In this document: positions 15,610 to 32,878 of the stretch, one piece after another | Layout of the letters: each line of letters starts with the position of its first letter | Position numbering within the stretch: position 1 is the stretch's first letter | Source of the DNA: Peribolospora baueri | Lineage: Eukaryota | Reading direction: 5' to 3' | DNA length: 64,000 nucleotides | NCBI GenBank assembly: GCA_029717555.1 | Contig: JAMDHS010000025.1 | Coordinates: forward strand, 186,001-250,000 | Notes under the pieces: generated by a model | Told to the model about the DNA's origin: nothing | The model's input: only the letters and a program-made list of their open reading frames with translations | Databases searched by the model: none | Position numbers and translations under genes: made by a program

Positions 15610-16415
15610 TGGGTCGTCTGAGCCCAAGTCGAGTAGCGTCGACCTCGGCCTGTCGGTTCAAATCGGTTGGACCGGGCAGGCGCGTCGATGCCGCACGGAC
15701 CTTATCTTTCTTCCTCCTAATCTGGTGGGCGGGCGGCTGGGACGCGCCTGCCTTCTGACGCCGGGCTCCTCATATGGACCGAGGGCGCGCATCTCCTGTT
15801 CGTCTCTTTCGCTCTTGTCTGTCCGCCGAGCTGCCTCATCTCCATCTGAACATCCGTCCTTCGTATGTATGCTACATCTCTTTGGGTAGCTAGACCGCAC
15901 GGGCCGACGGTGCGATGGGTTGCAATACATCAGTCGATGGCGCTTGGTGCCGGGTACACCTAAGCTGCCGCTGATCGATTTGGCCGGCTGGTCGCATGGG
16001 TCGATCAAGGTGGTCCACCGGAGGGCGCAGAAGGAGCATCGCGCGGATACTCTCCTCGAGCCCCACGCTCGAGACGGTCACGGTCAAGCTCCAGGGCAGG
16101 CGGTGACCGGATGTGGACTTGGACGGCCCCCAACCTGGTGGATATATAGACTCCGCGAGACCCGGTCTGCCGCGAATCGTTCCACTGGTCGAGCTGCCTC
16201 TCGTCGCTGGGGTGGAAGCCGCAGCAGGCAGGCCACGGTTGCTCGCCTGCCAAATGGGAGGTCGTCAGAGCTCGAAACGCATGTTTAAGTTCGAAAGAGG
16301 CCTCAGAAGGATCGAGGGCATGGACGTGGACAGTAGGCGGCGGCGCGAAAAAAAACCCCACCGCAACGACGAGAAGGGTTTTATGATAGGCGTAAAATAC
16401 AAGAATAACGTAACA

Positions 16416-16509
16416 GGCAGGATGACCGAGTGGTTAAGGTGCTGCATTCAGGACTTCTGAAGTTGTTCTGCAGTCCGAAAGGGCGTGGGTTCGAATCCCA
16501 CTCCTGTCA
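16416..16509 (+). tRNA. tRNA-Leu(CAG) with a 15-nt intron (16453-16467)
   Basis: Acceptor stem GGCAGGA/TCCTGTC with discriminator A. D-loop GAGTGGTTAA. Anticodon stem CTGCA/TGCAG with TT-CAG-G. Variable arm CCGAAAGG. T-arm GTGGG-TTCGAAT-CCCAC. The intron contains CTGAA, which pairs with the anticodon loop. Confidence 0.95.
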
Positions 16510-16513
16510 TAAC

Positions 16514-16535
16514 TTTTTGGAACTGGAAGTTTTTT
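16514..16535 (+). terminator. RNA polymerase III terminators (T5 then T6) after tRNA-Leu
   Basis: TTTTT at 16514-16518 and TTTTTT at 16530-16535, directly after the tRNA 3' end. Confidence 0.8.
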
Positions 16536-16643
16536 ATGCTTGGCATCCGTGTTGAGTCTGATCGGGCCGCGACGTGTGAGTCTTGTTATCTCCGCTTGTG
16601 TCCGTTTAGCCTCTTTCCTGGAGAGACGCCGGGCGCACCGGCC

Positions 16644-16760
16644 TTCATCGGCAACTGGGTACTCTTCGAACAGGAGCTCCACCACCACGCCGGCACAGTG
16701 TCCATGAAAGCCGGCGTGGTGGTGGAGCTCCTGTTCGAAGAGTACCCAGTTGCCGATGAA
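16644..16760. repeat. Perfect 51-bp inverted repeat with a 15-nt loop
   Basis: 16644-16694 (TTCATCGGCAACTGGGTACTCTTCGAACAGGAGCTCCACCACCACGCCGGC) is the exact reverse complement of 16710-16760. Confidence 0.97.
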
Positions 16761-16880
16761 AGCCGGCGTGTCCTCGTCATTTCCGAAGAGGTAGGGCCCG
16801 AACCAGGAATGGGCTACCGAATCGAAGTACGAGGCCGTGTAGATGACCTTGTTTCTATCAGTCGAAAATCGCTGCGGATT
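16710..16880 (-). pseudogene. Ty3/gypsy retrotransposon Gag-like fragment
   Basis: Hand translation NPQRFSTDRNKVIYTASYFDSVAHSWFGPYLFGNDEDTPAFIGNWVLFEQELHHHAG fits the Retrotrans_gag pattern (PxxFxxDxxKVxYxxSY...AxxWF...WxxFxxEL). No start codon, and an in-frame stop lies ~45 nt upstream. Confidence 0.72.
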
Positions 16881-17065
16881 GAGGGGAAAGATTGGAGTTA
16901 TTGCGCCAACCTGACGTATTATTCATTCACTAAGGAAAATAGGTTTCCGGTTGTAAATCTGCGTTGCCCGGTACAAAAAGCCCTAGCAAGGGAAGGAGAG
17001 GGGCAATGGATGCAAGAGGAGATGACCGGACCCACACGTGGCTAGCCGATAAGATTCCACAAGTG

Positions 17066-17706
17066 TGTGGGATTCTAGTGTACTGGTCCGGTCATCTCCG
17101 CTTGTGAAGTTGAGTTTTATATTCAGCAGACGTCAAGACCGGCCGATAGCCGACAGAACAGCACGCCTCCGACCGGGTCAAGTAGGCATCGAAGAATAAG
17201 GCCTGATCAGCCTACTGCAAGATGAACCATCCTCGTAACGACGAGATTGACCCGATGGACGGTCAGACTCCGCGGCTGGCTGACATGATGGAGGGTCAGA
17301 CCCCCCGGCCAGCAACGGCTCCCGTTCCGCGAGCCGGCCGCGCACATGGAGACCGCCGACCAACGTTGGGATGTGTGACCGACGCCATAACAGCGTTCAT
17401 CTGTGTCATCATCATGCTCATCCGCGCCTCCCAACGTTGGTCGGCGGTCTCCGTGTGCGCGGCCGGCTCCGGAACGGGAGCCGTTGCTGGCCGCGAGGTT
17501 TGACCGTCCATCGGATCGCTCTCGTTGTTACGAAGATGGTTCATCTTCATCTTCCAGTAGGCTGAGCAGGCCTTATTCTTGGATGCCTACTCGACCCGGT
17601 CGGAGGCGTGCTGTTCTGTCGGCTATCGGCCGGTCTTGACGTCTGCTGAATATAAAACTCAACTTCACAAGCGGAGATGACCGGACCAGTGGACTAGAAG
17701 CCCACA
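17066..17706. repeat. Element B: ~640-bp foldback (arms 17066-17371 and 17429-17706, 57-nt loop) with TGTGGG...CCCACA ends
   Basis: The arms are reverse complements with scattered substitutions and indels of 33, 6 and 1 bp. 17082-17179 pairs perfectly with 17593-17690 (98 bp). Confidence 0.95.
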
Positions 17707-17881
17707 GCGGTCAGATCGCGTGCATTTGTTCAGATCAAGTAGCGAGGGACAAGCACGACAGCGTTTGTTATAGTCGACATGGTATCGGTCGGATCTCTGG
17801 CATAGGATGGAGAGCGGGAGATATGTATAGCGGACACACGGACAGCAGAGATTACGGAGAAAACGACAGCGAATACAGGCG

Positions 17882-20800
17882 TCACGACGCCCGAGGCGGG
17901 ACTCGGAACACCTTGAGAACGCCAGACCGGAGGTCGTCTGTCATGGAAGGATGGCGGTCAGCACGTCGCACATGTCCGCCACGCCGACGCCCTGAAACTC
18001 ACCGAGCCGGTAGCTGACCTCTTCAGCCGCGTGCGCGTGCCTACCGCCGGCCCTTTGGGGCGACTGCAACACTCTCAACTTGCGCTTCTTGCCGTCGTTC
18101 TCCACCACGACGCCGGCTTGGGGCGTCGAGGCAGTGCCGAATTGCTGGTGGTATGGTGCCAGTCTAAAGGAGGAAAAGAGTGTGAGCGCTGCGCAAAGAA
18201 ACCCTAATACTCGTACTCACCCTTTCTTTCCCTTCAAATCCGCTCCGAATGCGAGCAACACATCCCCTGGCCGGACCTCATCCGTGTGGTTGGTAACACT
18301 GGGCCCCACTTGTTCGAAAACGGGCACGCCGAGGCTCTGCGCGGCCGACGGGTGAACGTGGGGCACGGAGCGGAGGGTGGCTAACACGAACGCAATGGCG
18401 GCGTCTGGTCCCGTTTCCTGAAAAAGGTCCGAGGCGGGCCTCTGCGCGAGGCTCTGCGCGGAACGGACAATGTCGCCGGCCAGGAAGCTGGACCATTGTC
18501 GGAGTTGGTCGGCCGACGGAGGACCAGAGGGAGGCGCGACGGGCGCGGAGGGCTGCTGCGACTGAGGGGCGACAGGAACGTCTTGTGCAGCATGAGGGTC
18601 GCCGAACGATGCCGGCGACTTGTCGGGGACAGCCGGCGGTATGTCAACGCTGTGCTCTTCCACGTGTGCCGGCAGCTCGTCCGGTTCGTCTTTTGGGCTT
18701 GCAAACGGCTGGGGTTGGCCTGCTGCCGGTGGCGGCCTGTTAGGCCTTGCCGGTAAGTTCCTCGACGGAGGTGAGGCCGTCCAGGCCGTCGTATCGCTAA
18801 AACCGGTACTCGAGTCGGTGGCCTCGAAGCCTTCGTCCATGTCGTCCACGGAAACGTCGCGTGACCGCCCGCCTCCCGAAGCCACACTGGCGCGTTGGCT
18901 GTACAGACCTTGGGGAACAGGTGGACGCTTGGAAGGAGGGGCAGGGGCGGGGGCGGCGACGGGAGCGACAGCCGCCGTCTCTATCCCCTTAGAGTCTTCG
19001 GTGGATCGCACGTTCTCGCCGCCCGTGGGCGAGACGGGTGGGAGGGAACGCTTCGGCGCCGGCGCTGGAGGCCTCGCCGACGGACGAGGTGGAGCCGCGG
19101 GCGCATCGTCCTCGCTGGCCAGTTCAACATCCTCATTCAACTGCACCGACTCTACTTGAGCGGCGCCGGGAGGCGACTTGGTTCTGGAAGGCATCCCAGG
19201 GATGGGAACCGCCGGCAGACCGAAGATGGGCACGGCGCCAGCGGGCAAGCCGGGAATCCGCCTCGACGGGGGAGCAGGATGATGAGCGCTCTCTTCTTCA
19301 TTCGGGCTCGCCTCTTCCACATCTTCCACAGGGACGCGACGCTCAGGCTCATCCTCGGGATCCGCCGTCGTCGCGCCGTACGTCACGTCCTCGTCGCAAG
19401 TGCTTCTGCTGGCAGGAGCCATCGGCCTCCCGGCAGGAGAAGAGGGCTGCTCGGCCTCCGTCGCCGCCGCCATCGCAGGCTTCGACCTCGGCTTTCCCGG
19501 AACATGCCCGCCGAAGAGGGGACCGCCCATCCTCTGTCCACCGAGAGCGGCCATACGCTTCGCGATGGCGGCCCGACGGGCTGCTTCCATCTCCTCCTCC
19601 GTCTGCGGCTGCTCTTGCTCCTCTTTCACCTCGGTTTCTTGGGCGGGGTCTTTTCCAGAGAGGGAAGTGTCCGGGGCCGTTACTCCGGCAGGTTCAACGG
19701 GCTCAGCGACGGCTTGAATGGAATCCTTTGCCCCATCTTCCGTCGCTCCGGACGGTGCATCGCTCTCCTGCATAGTCGAGAGATCACGGTGAACATGTCC
19801 TGGACCCTCGACGGGTTCAACGGGTTCCTCCGCCTCCCCGTCAGAGTCCGCACCAGCGGTCACAGTACCAGCCATCGGAATGAGATCAGCCGCCGGCATG
19901 GGAATGGGGACATTCACGTTCGTGGGCTTAGCGACTGGCGCATCCTCGATGGGGGGTTTATCGGAGGACAGTTCACGCTGCGGTTGGACGGGTTCCGCGT
20001 GGGCGTGCGTCGCCGTGAGTTCAGTCGCGCGCGTGACAGGAGACATCGTATCGGCAGTGCTCGGCTGCTCCATTTGCTCAGTCGAGCTCGCTGGTGCCAA
20101 CTCGGAAGCGCCTCCAGCTGTACCACTTTCAGACGAAAACGGTTTCGTCTCGTCCTTGACATCCGGATGGGCGGAAGACTCCACTGGCGGCGTCTCTTCT
20201 TGCCTGAAAGTGGCCCCCTCCCCACCGATTTCCACCTCGCCGCGTTTGCTATCCGTCGGATCAGAGGGCTCGACGGACTCCTCCGCGACGCTCTCCGCCG
20301 CGGGAGTCCGCGACGGCGGCTCCGAAGGGAACTCTTTGTCCTCCACCGCTGGGGTGCCCGAGGCGAGGAGACCGAGCGAGGCAGGGTCGTAGAATGCCTC
20401 AGAAGAACTAGTCTGTTCGACGGCGACCACGGATTCATCCTTCGGAGTGGCGGCGTCAGCGCTCTTCACTTCCGTCGCGGAGGGTGAAGGGCGCAGCCGT
20501 CGAGGTGGGGCGGTGCGACGTGGCAGAGGCTTCAGCGGTCCGGTCGATGCGGGAGAGGACGATTCGGGAGACGCGCTCGAGGGAGACAGGCCAGACTCGG
20601 TGCTGCCCTCGGCGGCAGAAGCTTGGCGCTCGTCCGATACATCTTCTTTGCCAGCCTCGGTGCTCGCCGCCCTTGGCGGCCGCGGGGGAGCGGGCGCAGG
20701 CGCGGGCGCAAACACGGGTCCACCCATCCTCCGCCCTCCCAAAGCGGCCATGCGTTTGGCGATCGCGGCGCGGCGAGCTTGCTCGGCCTCTTCTTCCGTC

Positions 20801-22455
20801 TGCTCTTGGCTCGCGGTGTCTCCGACACCCGCGTCTTGAGTCTCGCCTTCCGCGCGGAGCGAGAGAGGTTCGATGGACGACTCGCTCGGGGGAGAAGCAG
20901 CCTCCTGCGAATGCGACGACGGGCTCAATGTCGCGCTCTCACCCTCCGGCGGAGCCTCGCCGCCGTCGGCCGTGATGCTGGTCCGAGAGTCGCTCGAAGC
21001 CTTGCGCGCGGGCTTGGGCGGCGCGGACGCGCCGAGTCCAATGGCACCAACGGCGATGCCGCGACGTTCCACGGACAGCTTTCCGGGCACGGGAGGTCTC
21101 TCCTTGGCCGTAGTTGAGCTGGTTTCCTTCCTGTCACCCTCGTCATCCTCCTTAGGCTGGCCCCTAGACAAGGCCGCGATGCGATCCCTCAAGCTGCCAA
21201 CTTTGACGGCGCTTCGAGCATCAGCGGCGGACATGCCGCTCTCCCTCTTCTTGTCTTCGCTGTCGGCGTCCGCGCTCACCGATGACGGAGCAGCCCCGGG
21301 GAAACCTCGACGGACGAAACCGCCGCCGGAAGGCTTGCCACGCGGCAAAGGTGGAGGAGCGGCGTCGGCGGGCTTGTTGAAAGCGGCGATGCGGTCCCGG
21401 AGCTGTAACAACGCGAACGATAAAAATTTAGCTAAGAGGTTCGGAGATCCCGTATCTCAACTCAAACGGCGCTCACGGAATTAGGCTTGGACGGCGGAGG
21501 TGGTTTCTGCATGTTCGAAGCGGCAGGCGTGGAGAGCACGAAAGACGTCGTCAGCATGCTCTTCTCGCGTGACACAATTGCTCTAGTCGCTCACGGGCTT
21601 TGCGTCTGTCGGTGGTGACGTCGGCTTCGGCTCTTCTTGCTTCAGTGGCTCTGGCTCCTTTGATTCTAGCTCTTTTGACTCTTGCTCCTTTGGCTCTTGC
21701 TCCTTTGACTCTTGCTCCTTTGGCTCCAGCTCCTTTATCTCTTGCTCCTTCGGCTCCGGCTCCTTTGACTCTGGCTCCACGGGCTGGGGCTCATCTGCTA
21801 CCGGCACTGGACCAGGAATCGTTTGCGCTTCGACGTTGGGCAAGGTGGACGAGCCCTCCTCAGTCGCAGCAGACGCAATGGCCGAATCCGACCCGGAACC
21901 CTCAGCGGTCGCCGACGTGGGGTCAGCTTGGACATCCGAGCTCGCGCTTGCCATCGCCGGTTCCGCCGTAGGACCTTCCAACTCGCCTGGGGGGGCGTCG
22001 GGTGAGACAGGCGAGACCTGGGGTGGAGCGGCGGTCAAAGGCTCGGTCGCTTGATGTTCGGAGCTCGGAGCGCCCAACGCAGCCTGGGGTTGCTCTTGCT
22101 CCTCCACCGACCTTTCCGCTTCCGCCTCAGCAGCGAGCGGCGCCGGCGTGTCAGCATTGGTCTCTTCTGGATGTCCGGACGCCGGAGCTGGAGGCGGGGC
22201 AGCGTCACCTTCAATCCTTCTGACAAAGCCGGCGGGAAAGGTGCCCTTCCTGGTGCCGTCCAAGCTCTCTCCTACGAGCCAGTCGTCATCGTCATCGTCG
22301 TCCTCGTCGCCAGCCTCTTTCGCCTGCTTGGCGAGCGACAAGACGCGAATGGTATCGTTCTTGGCAAAGACAAGGTCGCCGGCGTGAGGAGACCTGTATT
22401 TCATCGCGGCGACAGCGAGGTAAGGGAAGGTGCTATGCCCTGCCTGCGCGGCCAT
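17882..22455 (-). CDS. SH3-domain, Pro/Glu-rich actin-patch protein, Bbc1/Mti1-like (multi-exon)
   Basis: N-terminal SH3 (AAMKYRSPHAGDLVFAKNDTIRV...DWLVGE...GTFPAGFV). Repeated 'LRDRIAA' and 'RRAAIAKRMAALGG' motifs. C-terminal domain EVRPGDVLL...GKKG|...KKRKLRV...SYRL|DDLRSGVLKVFRV. Confidence 0.8.
21640..21780 (-). repeat. 15-bp coding tandem repeat (E-x-E-x-K pentapeptide, ~9 copies) in the SH3 protein
   Basis: EPESK EPEPK EQEIK ELEPK EQESK EQEPK EQESK ELESK EPEPL. Confidence 0.9.
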
Positions 22456-22908
22456 GACGGCGGGGGGGGTGGAGTATGTGCTTAATGCGGTCGATCGTGC
22501 GGGTACGGAGTGCAGGTTGGGAGGCGAGCAAGTAAAGAAACGACGAAGAGAGGAGCTACGCAGAGTAGGACGTGCGCACGAAAGCAGTGTGCTCGCGCTC
22601 CGTCCGTCGTCGTCGTCGTCGTTGTTCGTCTCGTCCGTGCGCTCGTCGTCGCTACGTCGTCGGCTGGAGGGGCGCCGGGAGCCGGTGATGTAACTTGCCG
22701 CAGTAGGCGCGGGAACATCAGGGCCGAGGGAAGCTCACTATAAATAGGTCGAAATGAGCTTTCGAGGGGTATTACAAAAGTCAATTTGACCTTGGTTCCC
22801 GATCTCGATGACGTCTGTCGGCCGACGACGTCGTAAAACCCTTTCTCGTCGCCTCCAGCTCGACAGTTCGGCTCACAACTGCGCCGGCTCTCTCCTTAGA
22901 GCAAAGCT

Positions 22909-32094: not shown

Positions 32095-32261
32095 GGCGAT
32101 TGCGAGGCCAGGGTTCTCCGTTGTCGAAAAAAAAGGGCCGAGGTGAAAAAGTGGAGATGGGAGGCGACGGGGGGAAGAGATGAGGCGGCGAAGGTCGGCC
32201 ACTGAACCGAACAACACGGCGCCGTGAGGTCAGTGGGGTGGAGAGAAGGGAAGGAGCAAGT

Positions 32262-32878
32262 TAAAAATGATTGAGCACGATCCGCCGGGCGGGCCGCACT
32301 CAGTGGGAGTTCCCTACCTATGCTTCTTACTGAAGACGGCTGGGGCCGAACCGAGGCGATTAGACGTAAAGTAAGTTGGGAGAAGGAGAAAGAGAGGGAA
32401 GGAGGGACAGGCGAAGGGGAAGACAAGCACATCCGACGGCGGCGGGGTCCGCCGTGAAGCCCCGGCCGCGATGCCGGGGCGAGTGACTTTTTGGCAGCCA
32501 AGGCACGCCCGACCGGCCACCCCGTCGATCACCCAGTGCCCCCGACTAGGGCGCCGTTGTGCCTCGCCCAGTGCCTGGCGAAGCGTCGAGCAGAGGACCC
32601 ATGGCTAGGAGGGACAGACAAATGAGCGGAGATGGCGAACGGGACGACAGAAGGTGACGGAGCACGTCTGCCCGCGTTCCGGAGGCGATCCGTGATCGTC
32701 GTCGGCTTCGATCAGTCTTGCTTGTGCGACCTCGTTGCTTGTGCGACCCTCGGGCTTGTGCGACCCTCGGCGTCTCGGAGTCCGACGAAATGGTCCCGTC
32801 GCGAGGCGTAAAAAATGATTGAGCACGATCGGTCGGGCGGGCCGCAATCAGTGGGAGTTCCCTACCTATGCTTCCTAC
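32262..32878. repeat. Dispersed ~68-bp direct repeat (32262-32330 and ~32810-32878) plus 3x17-bp tandem repeat (32720-32770)
   Basis: AAAAATGATTGAGCACGATC...GGGCGGGCCGCA.TCAGTGGGAGTTCCCTACCTATGCTTC.TAC occurs twice. GCTTGTGCGACC(C)TCG occurs three times. Confidence 0.9.

Follow-up and report, generated by a model that had tools for sequence, protein, structure and literature searches.

A 64-kb window of Peribolospora baueri DNA (the whole stretch analysed here, positions 186,001 to 250,000 of contig JAMDHS010000025.1, numbered from its first letter) contains two side-by-side repeats, element A and element B, whose four ends share a TGT tip and, further inward, a box with the sequence GTCNNGTNATCTCCNCTTG. 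The TGT/ACA tips are real boundaries of a repeat family, because the 41-nt terminal module of B is multicopy and similarity between its copies stops exactly at the tips amid unlike flanks. Two dead mobile elements next to each other, as A and B are, make up an unremarkable kind of feature, although records of such a family in fungi are scarce, and we think it probable that they are neighbouring, non-autonomous and decayed terminal inverted repeat (TIR) elements of one family that were moved in trans by a DDE transposase of the retroviral-integrase type. Their inverted ends, TGTNR tips, small size, lack of a gene, shared ends with unlike interiors and breaks in similarity at the tips all lead us to read them as TIR elements, and we infer the class of enzyme, its binding to the box and the mobilisation in trans. 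In window coordinates, the two elements, their parts and their flanks are:

16546..16549, no strand: left flank, TCCG.
16550..17061, no strand: element A, 512 bp, TGTTG...CCACA, non-autonomous and decayed, with an interior that is single-copy at a likeness of at least 82%.
16550..16619, plus strand: left TIR of A, about 70 nt, with its box at 16580-16598 (box scan, end alignment and DNA fold).
16631..16773, no strand: inner hairpin of A, with 64-nt arms that are 94% complementary and a 15-nt loop.
16713..16922, minus strand: truncated Ty3/gypsy Gag (capsid) fragment of about 55 residues, with no start codon and cut on both sides.
16992..17061, minus strand: right TIR of A, with its box at 17013-17031 (box scan, end alignment and DNA fold).
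17062..17065, no strand: 4-bp spacer AGTG between facing tips (…CCACA AGTG TGTGGG…).
17066..17706, no strand: element B, a 641-bp foldback, TGTGGG...CCCACA, with left arm 17066-17371, loop 17372-17428 and right arm 17429-17706.
17066..17106, plus strand: left 41-nt terminal module of B, tip and box (17086-17104), multicopy.
17222..17371, plus strand: short open frame of B, preceded by a TATA-like run near 17112-17122 and mirrored on the minus strand by a frame that starts at 17550.
17666..17706, minus strand: right 41-nt terminal module of B, with its box at 17668-17686, multicopy.
17707..17710, no strand: right flank, GCGG.

Read inward, all four ends start with TGT(T/G)G (TGTTG, TGTGG, TGTGG and TGTGG), and the starts of the A-left, A-right, B-left and B-right ends are TGTTGAGTCT, TGTGGAATCT, TGTGGGATTCT and TGTGGGCTTCT, respectively. 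A scan of the window for the box, with up to 1 mismatch permitted and 100 dinucleotide shuffles as the expectation, gave 4 matches in the 64 kb (16580-16598 and 17086-17104 on the plus strand, 17013-17031 and 17668-17686 on the minus strand), all of them at the ends and each with 0 mismatches, against a mean of 0.00 in the shuffles. An nhmmer profile built from all four ends and run over the same window likewise found those four sites alone (E 1.5e-14 to 1.6e-9), the next best match having an E of 2. The preliminary description of this DNA, made from its letters alone, had placed such a box inside every TGT end; the four exact matches bear this out, and the ends, TGT tips and 4-bp flanks that it transcribed were confirmed letter for letter. 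One match to the 20-nt box in a metagenome (L001 3001-3020, the sole locus) was set aside as a chance match, being on an AT-rich contig with no TGT tip nearby.

The position of the box is as regular as its sequence. Its first nucleotide is number 31 from the tip at either end of A and number 21 at either end of B, so that the offsets of 30 nt (A) and 20 nt (B) differ by exactly one helical turn. Within the box, 10-bp units with TCC(G) in phase follow one another, two to three per end, namely GTCCGGTCAT and CTCCGCTTGT in B, GTCTTGTTAT, CTCCGCTTGT and GTCCGTTTAG in A-left (where the box continues as a third phased unit to 16609), and GTCCGGTCAT, CTCCTCTTGC and ATCCATTGCC in A-right. Counted from the tip, the TCC positions are 22 and 32 for B, and 32, 42 and 52 for A-right. 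Such phasing would fit recognition by a protein from a single side of the double helix, at a fixed phase from the cleavage site. When A and B were compared by blastn, the box alone was found (20 nt at 95%, with further matches of 16 and 13 nt) and nothing else scored below E = 1, in agreement with the earlier remark that the two interiors have no evident similarity. This pattern fits what may be a cis-acting site that was retained while the interiors were swapped or lost.

To place the two elements in a wider context we used Logan contigs of four public runs from a single study, aligned to window positions 16200-18000; no RNA run was among those listed for this DNA. X1 and X2 are from organism A, and X3 and X4 are from organism B; these are two related organisms and should not be confused with elements A and B. 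The share of window words found in the runs was 0.95 for X1 and X2 and about 0.45 for X3 and X4, and copy status and contig matches were compared among the four runs at a likeness of at least 82%. Summed contig depth, which is a rough measure and not a copy number, rose sharply over the two B end bins compared with the flanks: 600.9 and 1138.6 against 107.9 in X1, 502.5 and 906.6 against 88.4 in X2, 780.7 and 497 against 74.9 in X3, and 987.6 and 935.1 against 87.9 in X4. By this depth, again not a copy number, there are about 16 to 22 equivalents of a B end, a figure in which the two ends of B itself are counted. In X1 and X2 each, similarity is lost exactly before 17066 in 4 contigs and exactly behind 17706 in another 4, and the flanks of these contigs are unlike one another, with an agreement of 0.51 before 17066 and 0.62 behind 17706. 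Two contigs of X3 and X4 show a small variation of the tip (CCCCACA), beyond which they run into other flanks. The possibility, raised in the preliminary description, that the motif occurs nowhere else or away from element boundaries thus fails, the B module being multicopy with similarity that stops at the tips.

The same contigs also showed that the terminal module is joined elsewhere to a different interior. Three contigs exit at 17106 and 3 at 17666 in X1 and X2, sharing the 41-nt terminus only, and the interior that they enter starts TCCGCC..., which is a third TCCG unit in phase, as in A. Since this interior is unlike those of both A and B, the family has at least three kinds of interior, and several interiors behind one end motif are what a putative cis site for one transposase or integrase predicts. 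The earlier suggestion of a recognition site for one integrase or recombinase is therefore upheld in part: the motif bounds a repeat family with three or more interiors, and its binding by an integrase-type enzyme is predicted. In organism B, a contig runs from 17694 back to 17669 with 12 letters between, which we read as a tandem repeat of the box, and a C at 16583 brings the A-left box nearer the consensus. DNA transposons often have several copies of a subterminal binding site. Since A and B are present here in both organisms, the insertions predate their split, and no empty (pre-insertion) site was found at the locus in either of them.

In the mechanism that we propose, the tip module 5′-TGT(T/G)G, leaving a 3′ CA, would be where DDE enzymes of the retroviral-integrase type typically cleave and join, and the two to three 10-bp units (GTCCGGTCAT / CTCCGCTTGT / GTCCG...), with TCC(G) on one face of the helix, would form a subterminal docking module. 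A transposase encoded outside the window would bind the docking module at both ends, pair the ends, and then cut and integrate the element. The ends of insertion sequence (IS) elements likewise have two parts, the tip serving catalysis and a more internal segment serving binding. Element A would then be an old, internally scrambled copy with a captured or residual Gag fragment and an inverted duplication, and element B would have arisen when about the first 300 nt of a longer family member were duplicated in inverted orientation. The ends of A and of B are genuinely inverted, unlike those of a long terminal repeat (LTR), which are direct.

The two ends of element A match each other at 40 of 55 positions without gaps and pair over about 70 nt in the DNA fold. 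Its depth is about single-copy, and A is therefore an old, diverged relative of the family. The Gag fragment within it matched 49 proteins at E≤1e-3 in an exhaustive protein search, 12 of the 14 matches scanned carry Retrotrans_gag and/or Ty3_capsid (Pfam), and it corresponds to about residues 85-195 of full Gag proteins, with 28 of 51 positions identical to P0007. The other two scanned matches, P0003 and P0010, were dropped as spurious, since they are Ig/PKD repeat proteins that match in several weak stretches. Pfam on the fragment itself returned DUF4939 alone, under the cut-off (E 0.08); a word-indexed search among longer proteins gave no candidate, and no other contig in any of the four runs matched it at the likeness used. 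In the inner hairpin, the 3′ part of this fragment is duplicated in inverted orientation. In organism B, one X4 contig has 70 nt of the hairpin (16686-16755, the hairpin loop and most of the right arm) swapped for 24 other letters, so the palindrome of A is unstable between the two organisms. Repair-captured filler is established for deletion derivatives of DNA transposons and would easily account for the Gag piece and its inverted duplication, although the piece could instead be a remnant of the parent. As a separate observation, 18-20 nt of the hairpin stretch (within 16677-16727) recur with a 95% match at 18100-18119 (E 0.005), just downstream of an AIM3/BBC1-like open reading frame (ORF); this may be chance in G+C-rich, coding-like sequence.

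Element B folds back on itself almost perfectly (−343.8 kcal/mol and z = −42.6 in the DNA fold), with arms of 306 and 278 nt around a 57-nt loop and with outer arms that are 96% complementary over 161 nt. In each arm the 41-nt module comes first and a TATA-like run second, followed by the ATG of a short frame at 157 nt from the tip. Against longer proteins this frame gave 11 candidates, none at E≤1, and against the N-termini of the 49 Gag-fragment relatives there was no significant match (best E 0.76). Parts of the B interior are also matched by diverged contigs. In a comparison of the frame with these diverged paralogue contigs by eye, 3 of the 5 listed changes are at third codon positions and there is an in-frame 3-nt indel, while the replacements are mostly non-synonymous. 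One X4 contig leaves the window at about 17371/17372, the inner edge of the B left arm (by eye, with a loose end of 30 letters), and this suggests, from very little sequence, that the right arm and loop are colinear with a longer member that is not a foldback and that the left arm is the inverted duplicate.

Several observations count against an origin of A and B as TIR elements moved by an integrase-type transposase. No target-site duplication of 4, 5, 6 or 15 bp could be seen by eye for A, for B or for A and B together, as was already evident to the preliminary description from the flanks TCCG, AGTG and GCGG. A simple insertion beside a neighbour predicts a duplication, and none is present where the A-right and B-left tips point at each other with exactly 4 bp between them. 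The scan of 63 of the 97 window ORFs of at least 150 aa revealed no gene for a transposase or integrase. A holds a Ty3/gypsy Gag fragment, and TGT...ACA is also a gypsy LTR signature. The box in B is about 10 nt upstream of the TATA-like run, and its conservation could be partly promoter-related. The ends and interior of A are at about single-copy depth, only the B-type termini being shown as multicopy, and the elements diverge between organisms A and B about as much as their flanks do (~2.5% in both), with no sign of present constraint. With regard to the flanks, organism B has a G at 16546, making the left flank GCCG, and if A and B are taken as one unit this matches GCGG at 3 of 4 positions; the estimated chance of this is about 0.06 and the match is not evidence.

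Ginger is the closest known kind of element, though membership of A and B in it is unproven. The Ginger1 / Ginger2 (TDD) cut-and-paste DNA transposons were described by Bao, Kapitonov and Jurka in 2010, with TGTNR tips, TIRs of ~40-270 bp (Ginger1) or ~50-180 bp (Ginger2), duplications of 4 or 5 bp, and a Ginger1 preference for CCGG/CCGT targets (PMC2836005). Compared with these features, all four ends here have the termini TGTNR...YNACA, the TIRs are of suitable length (A with its 40/55 match and ~70 nt of pairing, B with 161 nt at 96% in an element that folds back as a whole), and the short G+C-rich, CCG-type flanks recall the Ginger1 targets. Autonomous Gingers encode a DDE transposase that resembles the gypsy integrase, and no reverse transcriptase, and non-autonomous copies are expected in any Ginger-like family. 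On the other side, this locus has no 4- or 5-bp duplication, the ORFs scanned include no integrase-like transposase, and the phased TCCG units and tRNA-side position seen here do not appear in the available part of the Ginger description (PMC2836005). A missing duplication at one old locus weakens Ginger membership without excluding it. The only fungal Ginger in the 2010 paper is a Malassezia vestige without TIRs (PMC2836005), and a 2017 survey names rve-bearing candidates "Ginger" across fungi with their ends undefined (PMC5751038).

Other known systems share some of these features. A and B resemble miniature inverted-repeat transposable elements and foldback elements in their size (512 and 641 bp), inverted ends, lack of an intact gene, interiors that are unrelated between subfamilies, and a multicopy terminal module (about a dozen copies or more) with breaks of similarity at the tips. 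Their internal ORFs contain no Pfam family except for the weak match of the Gag fragment. They differ from these elements by the lack of a target-site duplication at this locus, the low copy number and the piece of gag in A. Among eukaryotic elements, IS481EU has TGT..ACA tips with duplications of 4, ~15 or ~25 bp and is reported only from parabasalids, and GingerRoot/IS3EU has mostly TA..TA tips and 6-bp duplications (PMC10045372). The IS481EU tips fit A and B, but none of these duplication lengths is found here and the host is a fungus. The bacterial IS3 and IS481 elements have TG...CA or TGT...ACA tips, and tips facing each other across a few base pairs, as at 17057-17071, resemble the abutted-end junction of IS3-type circles or dimers and of 2-LTR circles. 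With that said, nothing here indicates a circle or dimer intermediate, and A and B are different elements.

The main rival to non-autonomous TIR elements, which we consider rather unlikely, is that A and B are LTR debris. The ends would then be Ty3/gypsy LTR termini with unusually long inverted ends and the box an att-like site of a retrotransposon integrase, with A as a deleted element (LTR start, gag piece, LTR end) and B as a palindromic rearrangement of the 5′ part of an LTR. LTR elements are the commonest carriers of TGT...ACA tips in fungi and some families adjoin tRNA genes, which gives this explanation a favourable prior. A and B also look like solo LTRs or remnants in having such tips, a length of a few hundred bp, a tRNA neighbourhood and, within A, a genuine Gag capsid fragment. 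A purine-rich run that ends the flank consensus before 17066 could be a polypurine tract, although the agreement there is just 0.51. The tips match the gypsy pattern as given in the Ginger paper, with TGTTGAG at A-left fitting it (PMC2836005).

Much of the structure is nevertheless difficult to reconcile with LTRs. No 4- to 6-bp duplication is present and B is palindromic. LTR ends usually share few inverted bases, whereas 41 to ~70 nt are inverted here. LTRs do not contain gag, yet the Gag fragment begins about 140 nt from the tip of A. By eye, the B arm has no LTR 3′ end or primer-binding site between the box and the ATG (nucleotide 157), and the minus strand of A has no convincing primer-binding site or LTR end. 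Two independent inverted pairs of LTR starts side by side would be unparsimonious, and the Gag fragment, without another contig match in the four runs, had no close protein relative in the word-indexed search either.

It is quite improbable, in our judgement, that the box is mainly a transcriptional control element (e.g., the site of a host factor on phased CCG/CGG triplets) inherited with the promoter of a parent, leaving only the TGT tip for mobility. Phased CCG triplets may resemble the sites of fungal zinc-cluster factors, and in both B arms the box is about 10 nt upstream of the TATA-like run with the ATG some 100 nt further on. Against this, both ends of A retain the box, with neither a TATA-like run nor an open frame behind it, the box holds a fixed helical phase to the tip at 20 or 30 nt, and it is the sole thing common to A, B and the third type of interior.

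A more elaborate version of the TIR reading, which we regard as a similarly long shot, is that the elements belong to a fungal lineage of integrase-driven DNA transposons tied to gypsy that settles just downstream of genes transcribed by RNA polymerase III (Pol III), with the facing tips as a fossil of abutted ends and B as a hairpin-RNA silencer. Such a lineage would combine inverted ends with gypsy-type tips, a phased TCCG docking array and a gag remnant in one member, and its facing tips would come from insertion beside a resident end or from an IS3-like dimer/circle pathway. To our knowledge, a pathway of this sort has not been described for eukaryotic elements of this kind. In Mu killer of maize, the 5′ end of an autonomous transposon is duplicated in inverted orientation, and the family is silenced through a hairpin RNA. 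B would be comparable as an inverted duplication of the terminal ~300 nt of an element, including its end and the start of an open frame.

The preliminary description had called A and B "cassettes", a word that hints at an integron-like or tyrosine-recombinase system, and it would be very surprising if tyrosine- or serine-recombinase cassettes (integron-like, or Crypton/DIRS-like) with the box as recombination site were the answer. Different interiors bounded by one motif without a visible target-site duplication would suit them, but the scanned ORFs include no recombinase gene, the sites are inverted and subterminal and not a single core at a junction, and TG...CA tips with long inverted ends are DDE hallmarks (PMC2836005, PMC10045372). 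The wording is without support, the TGT...ACA tips pointing to an integrase-type DDE enzyme. Least tenable are local, non-mobile palindromes that arose by template switching at replication or repair and acquired similar ends by gene conversion between neighbours, for although both elements have hairpins, the A-right and B-left tips are 4 bp apart with boxes that differ at only 1 of 19 positions, and the arrangement is identical in both organisms, this reading is already largely refuted by the run contigs, in which the module is multicopy, stops exactly at the tip amid unlike flanks and is joined elsewhere to a different interior.

The two elements are located directly behind a tRNA gene:

16416..16509, plus strand: tRNA-Leu(CAG) gene with a 15-nt intron at position 37/38 (Rfam tRNA, 49.6 bits; ARAGORN with intron search, tRNA-Leu(cag)).

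With its default settings, that is without intron search, ARAGORN reports 16416-16509 as tRNA-??? with a 4-base anticodon. By eye, the D-loop is Ser-like, and the discriminator base is A. Element A starts 40 nt past the 3′ end of this gene and 14 nt past the second T-run, and the cluster formed by A and B is the single one of its kind in the 64 kb, behind the window's sole tRNA gene. At this one locus, the position may reflect targeting, with the tRNA as a possible target landmark, or chance. Nine letters (GAATCCCAC) were also noted by eye to be common to the reverse complement of the B-left tip (17066-17078) and the T-arm/B-box region of the tRNA (16491-16501); this is probably chance because the match is absent from the other three ends.

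The rest of the window is fungal nuclear DNA, in which the ORF scan identified midasin, AIM3/BBC1-like, Hrd1-like ligase, MMS19 and SNF2-type genes, some of them being interrupted by introns. On the taxon of the window, a protein atlas gave "fungal-type Hrd1" alone, without a phylum. Two further repeats were observed. A 71-nt direct repeat (32260-32330 and 32808-32878, 93% identical and 548 nt apart) is unrelated to A and B and is found in a G+C-rich, apparently non-coding stretch, and nine overlapping copies of a 15-nt tandem unit at 21620-21799, corresponding to a 5-residue protein repeat, are within a long minus-strand ORF (21583-22734) that has a weak SH3 match.

No described fungal family of this kind was found among the results listed by a literature search. 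The prior fungal record in two sources consists of one end-less vestige (PMC2836005) and of survey candidates counted by integrase domain alone (PMC5751038). If the Ginger-like reading is true, A and B would represent a TIR-defined fungal family with integrase-type ends. Those ends are a clean candidate for a cis site, with a tip and TCCG units one helical turn apart, and such a site is of interest for the recognition of DNA by integrase-like transposases and for the evolutionary connection of gypsy retrotransposons with DNA transposons. For practical purposes this is routine repeat annotation, in which an odd 1.2-kb stretch between a tRNA gene and the next gene is accounted for by two dead elements.

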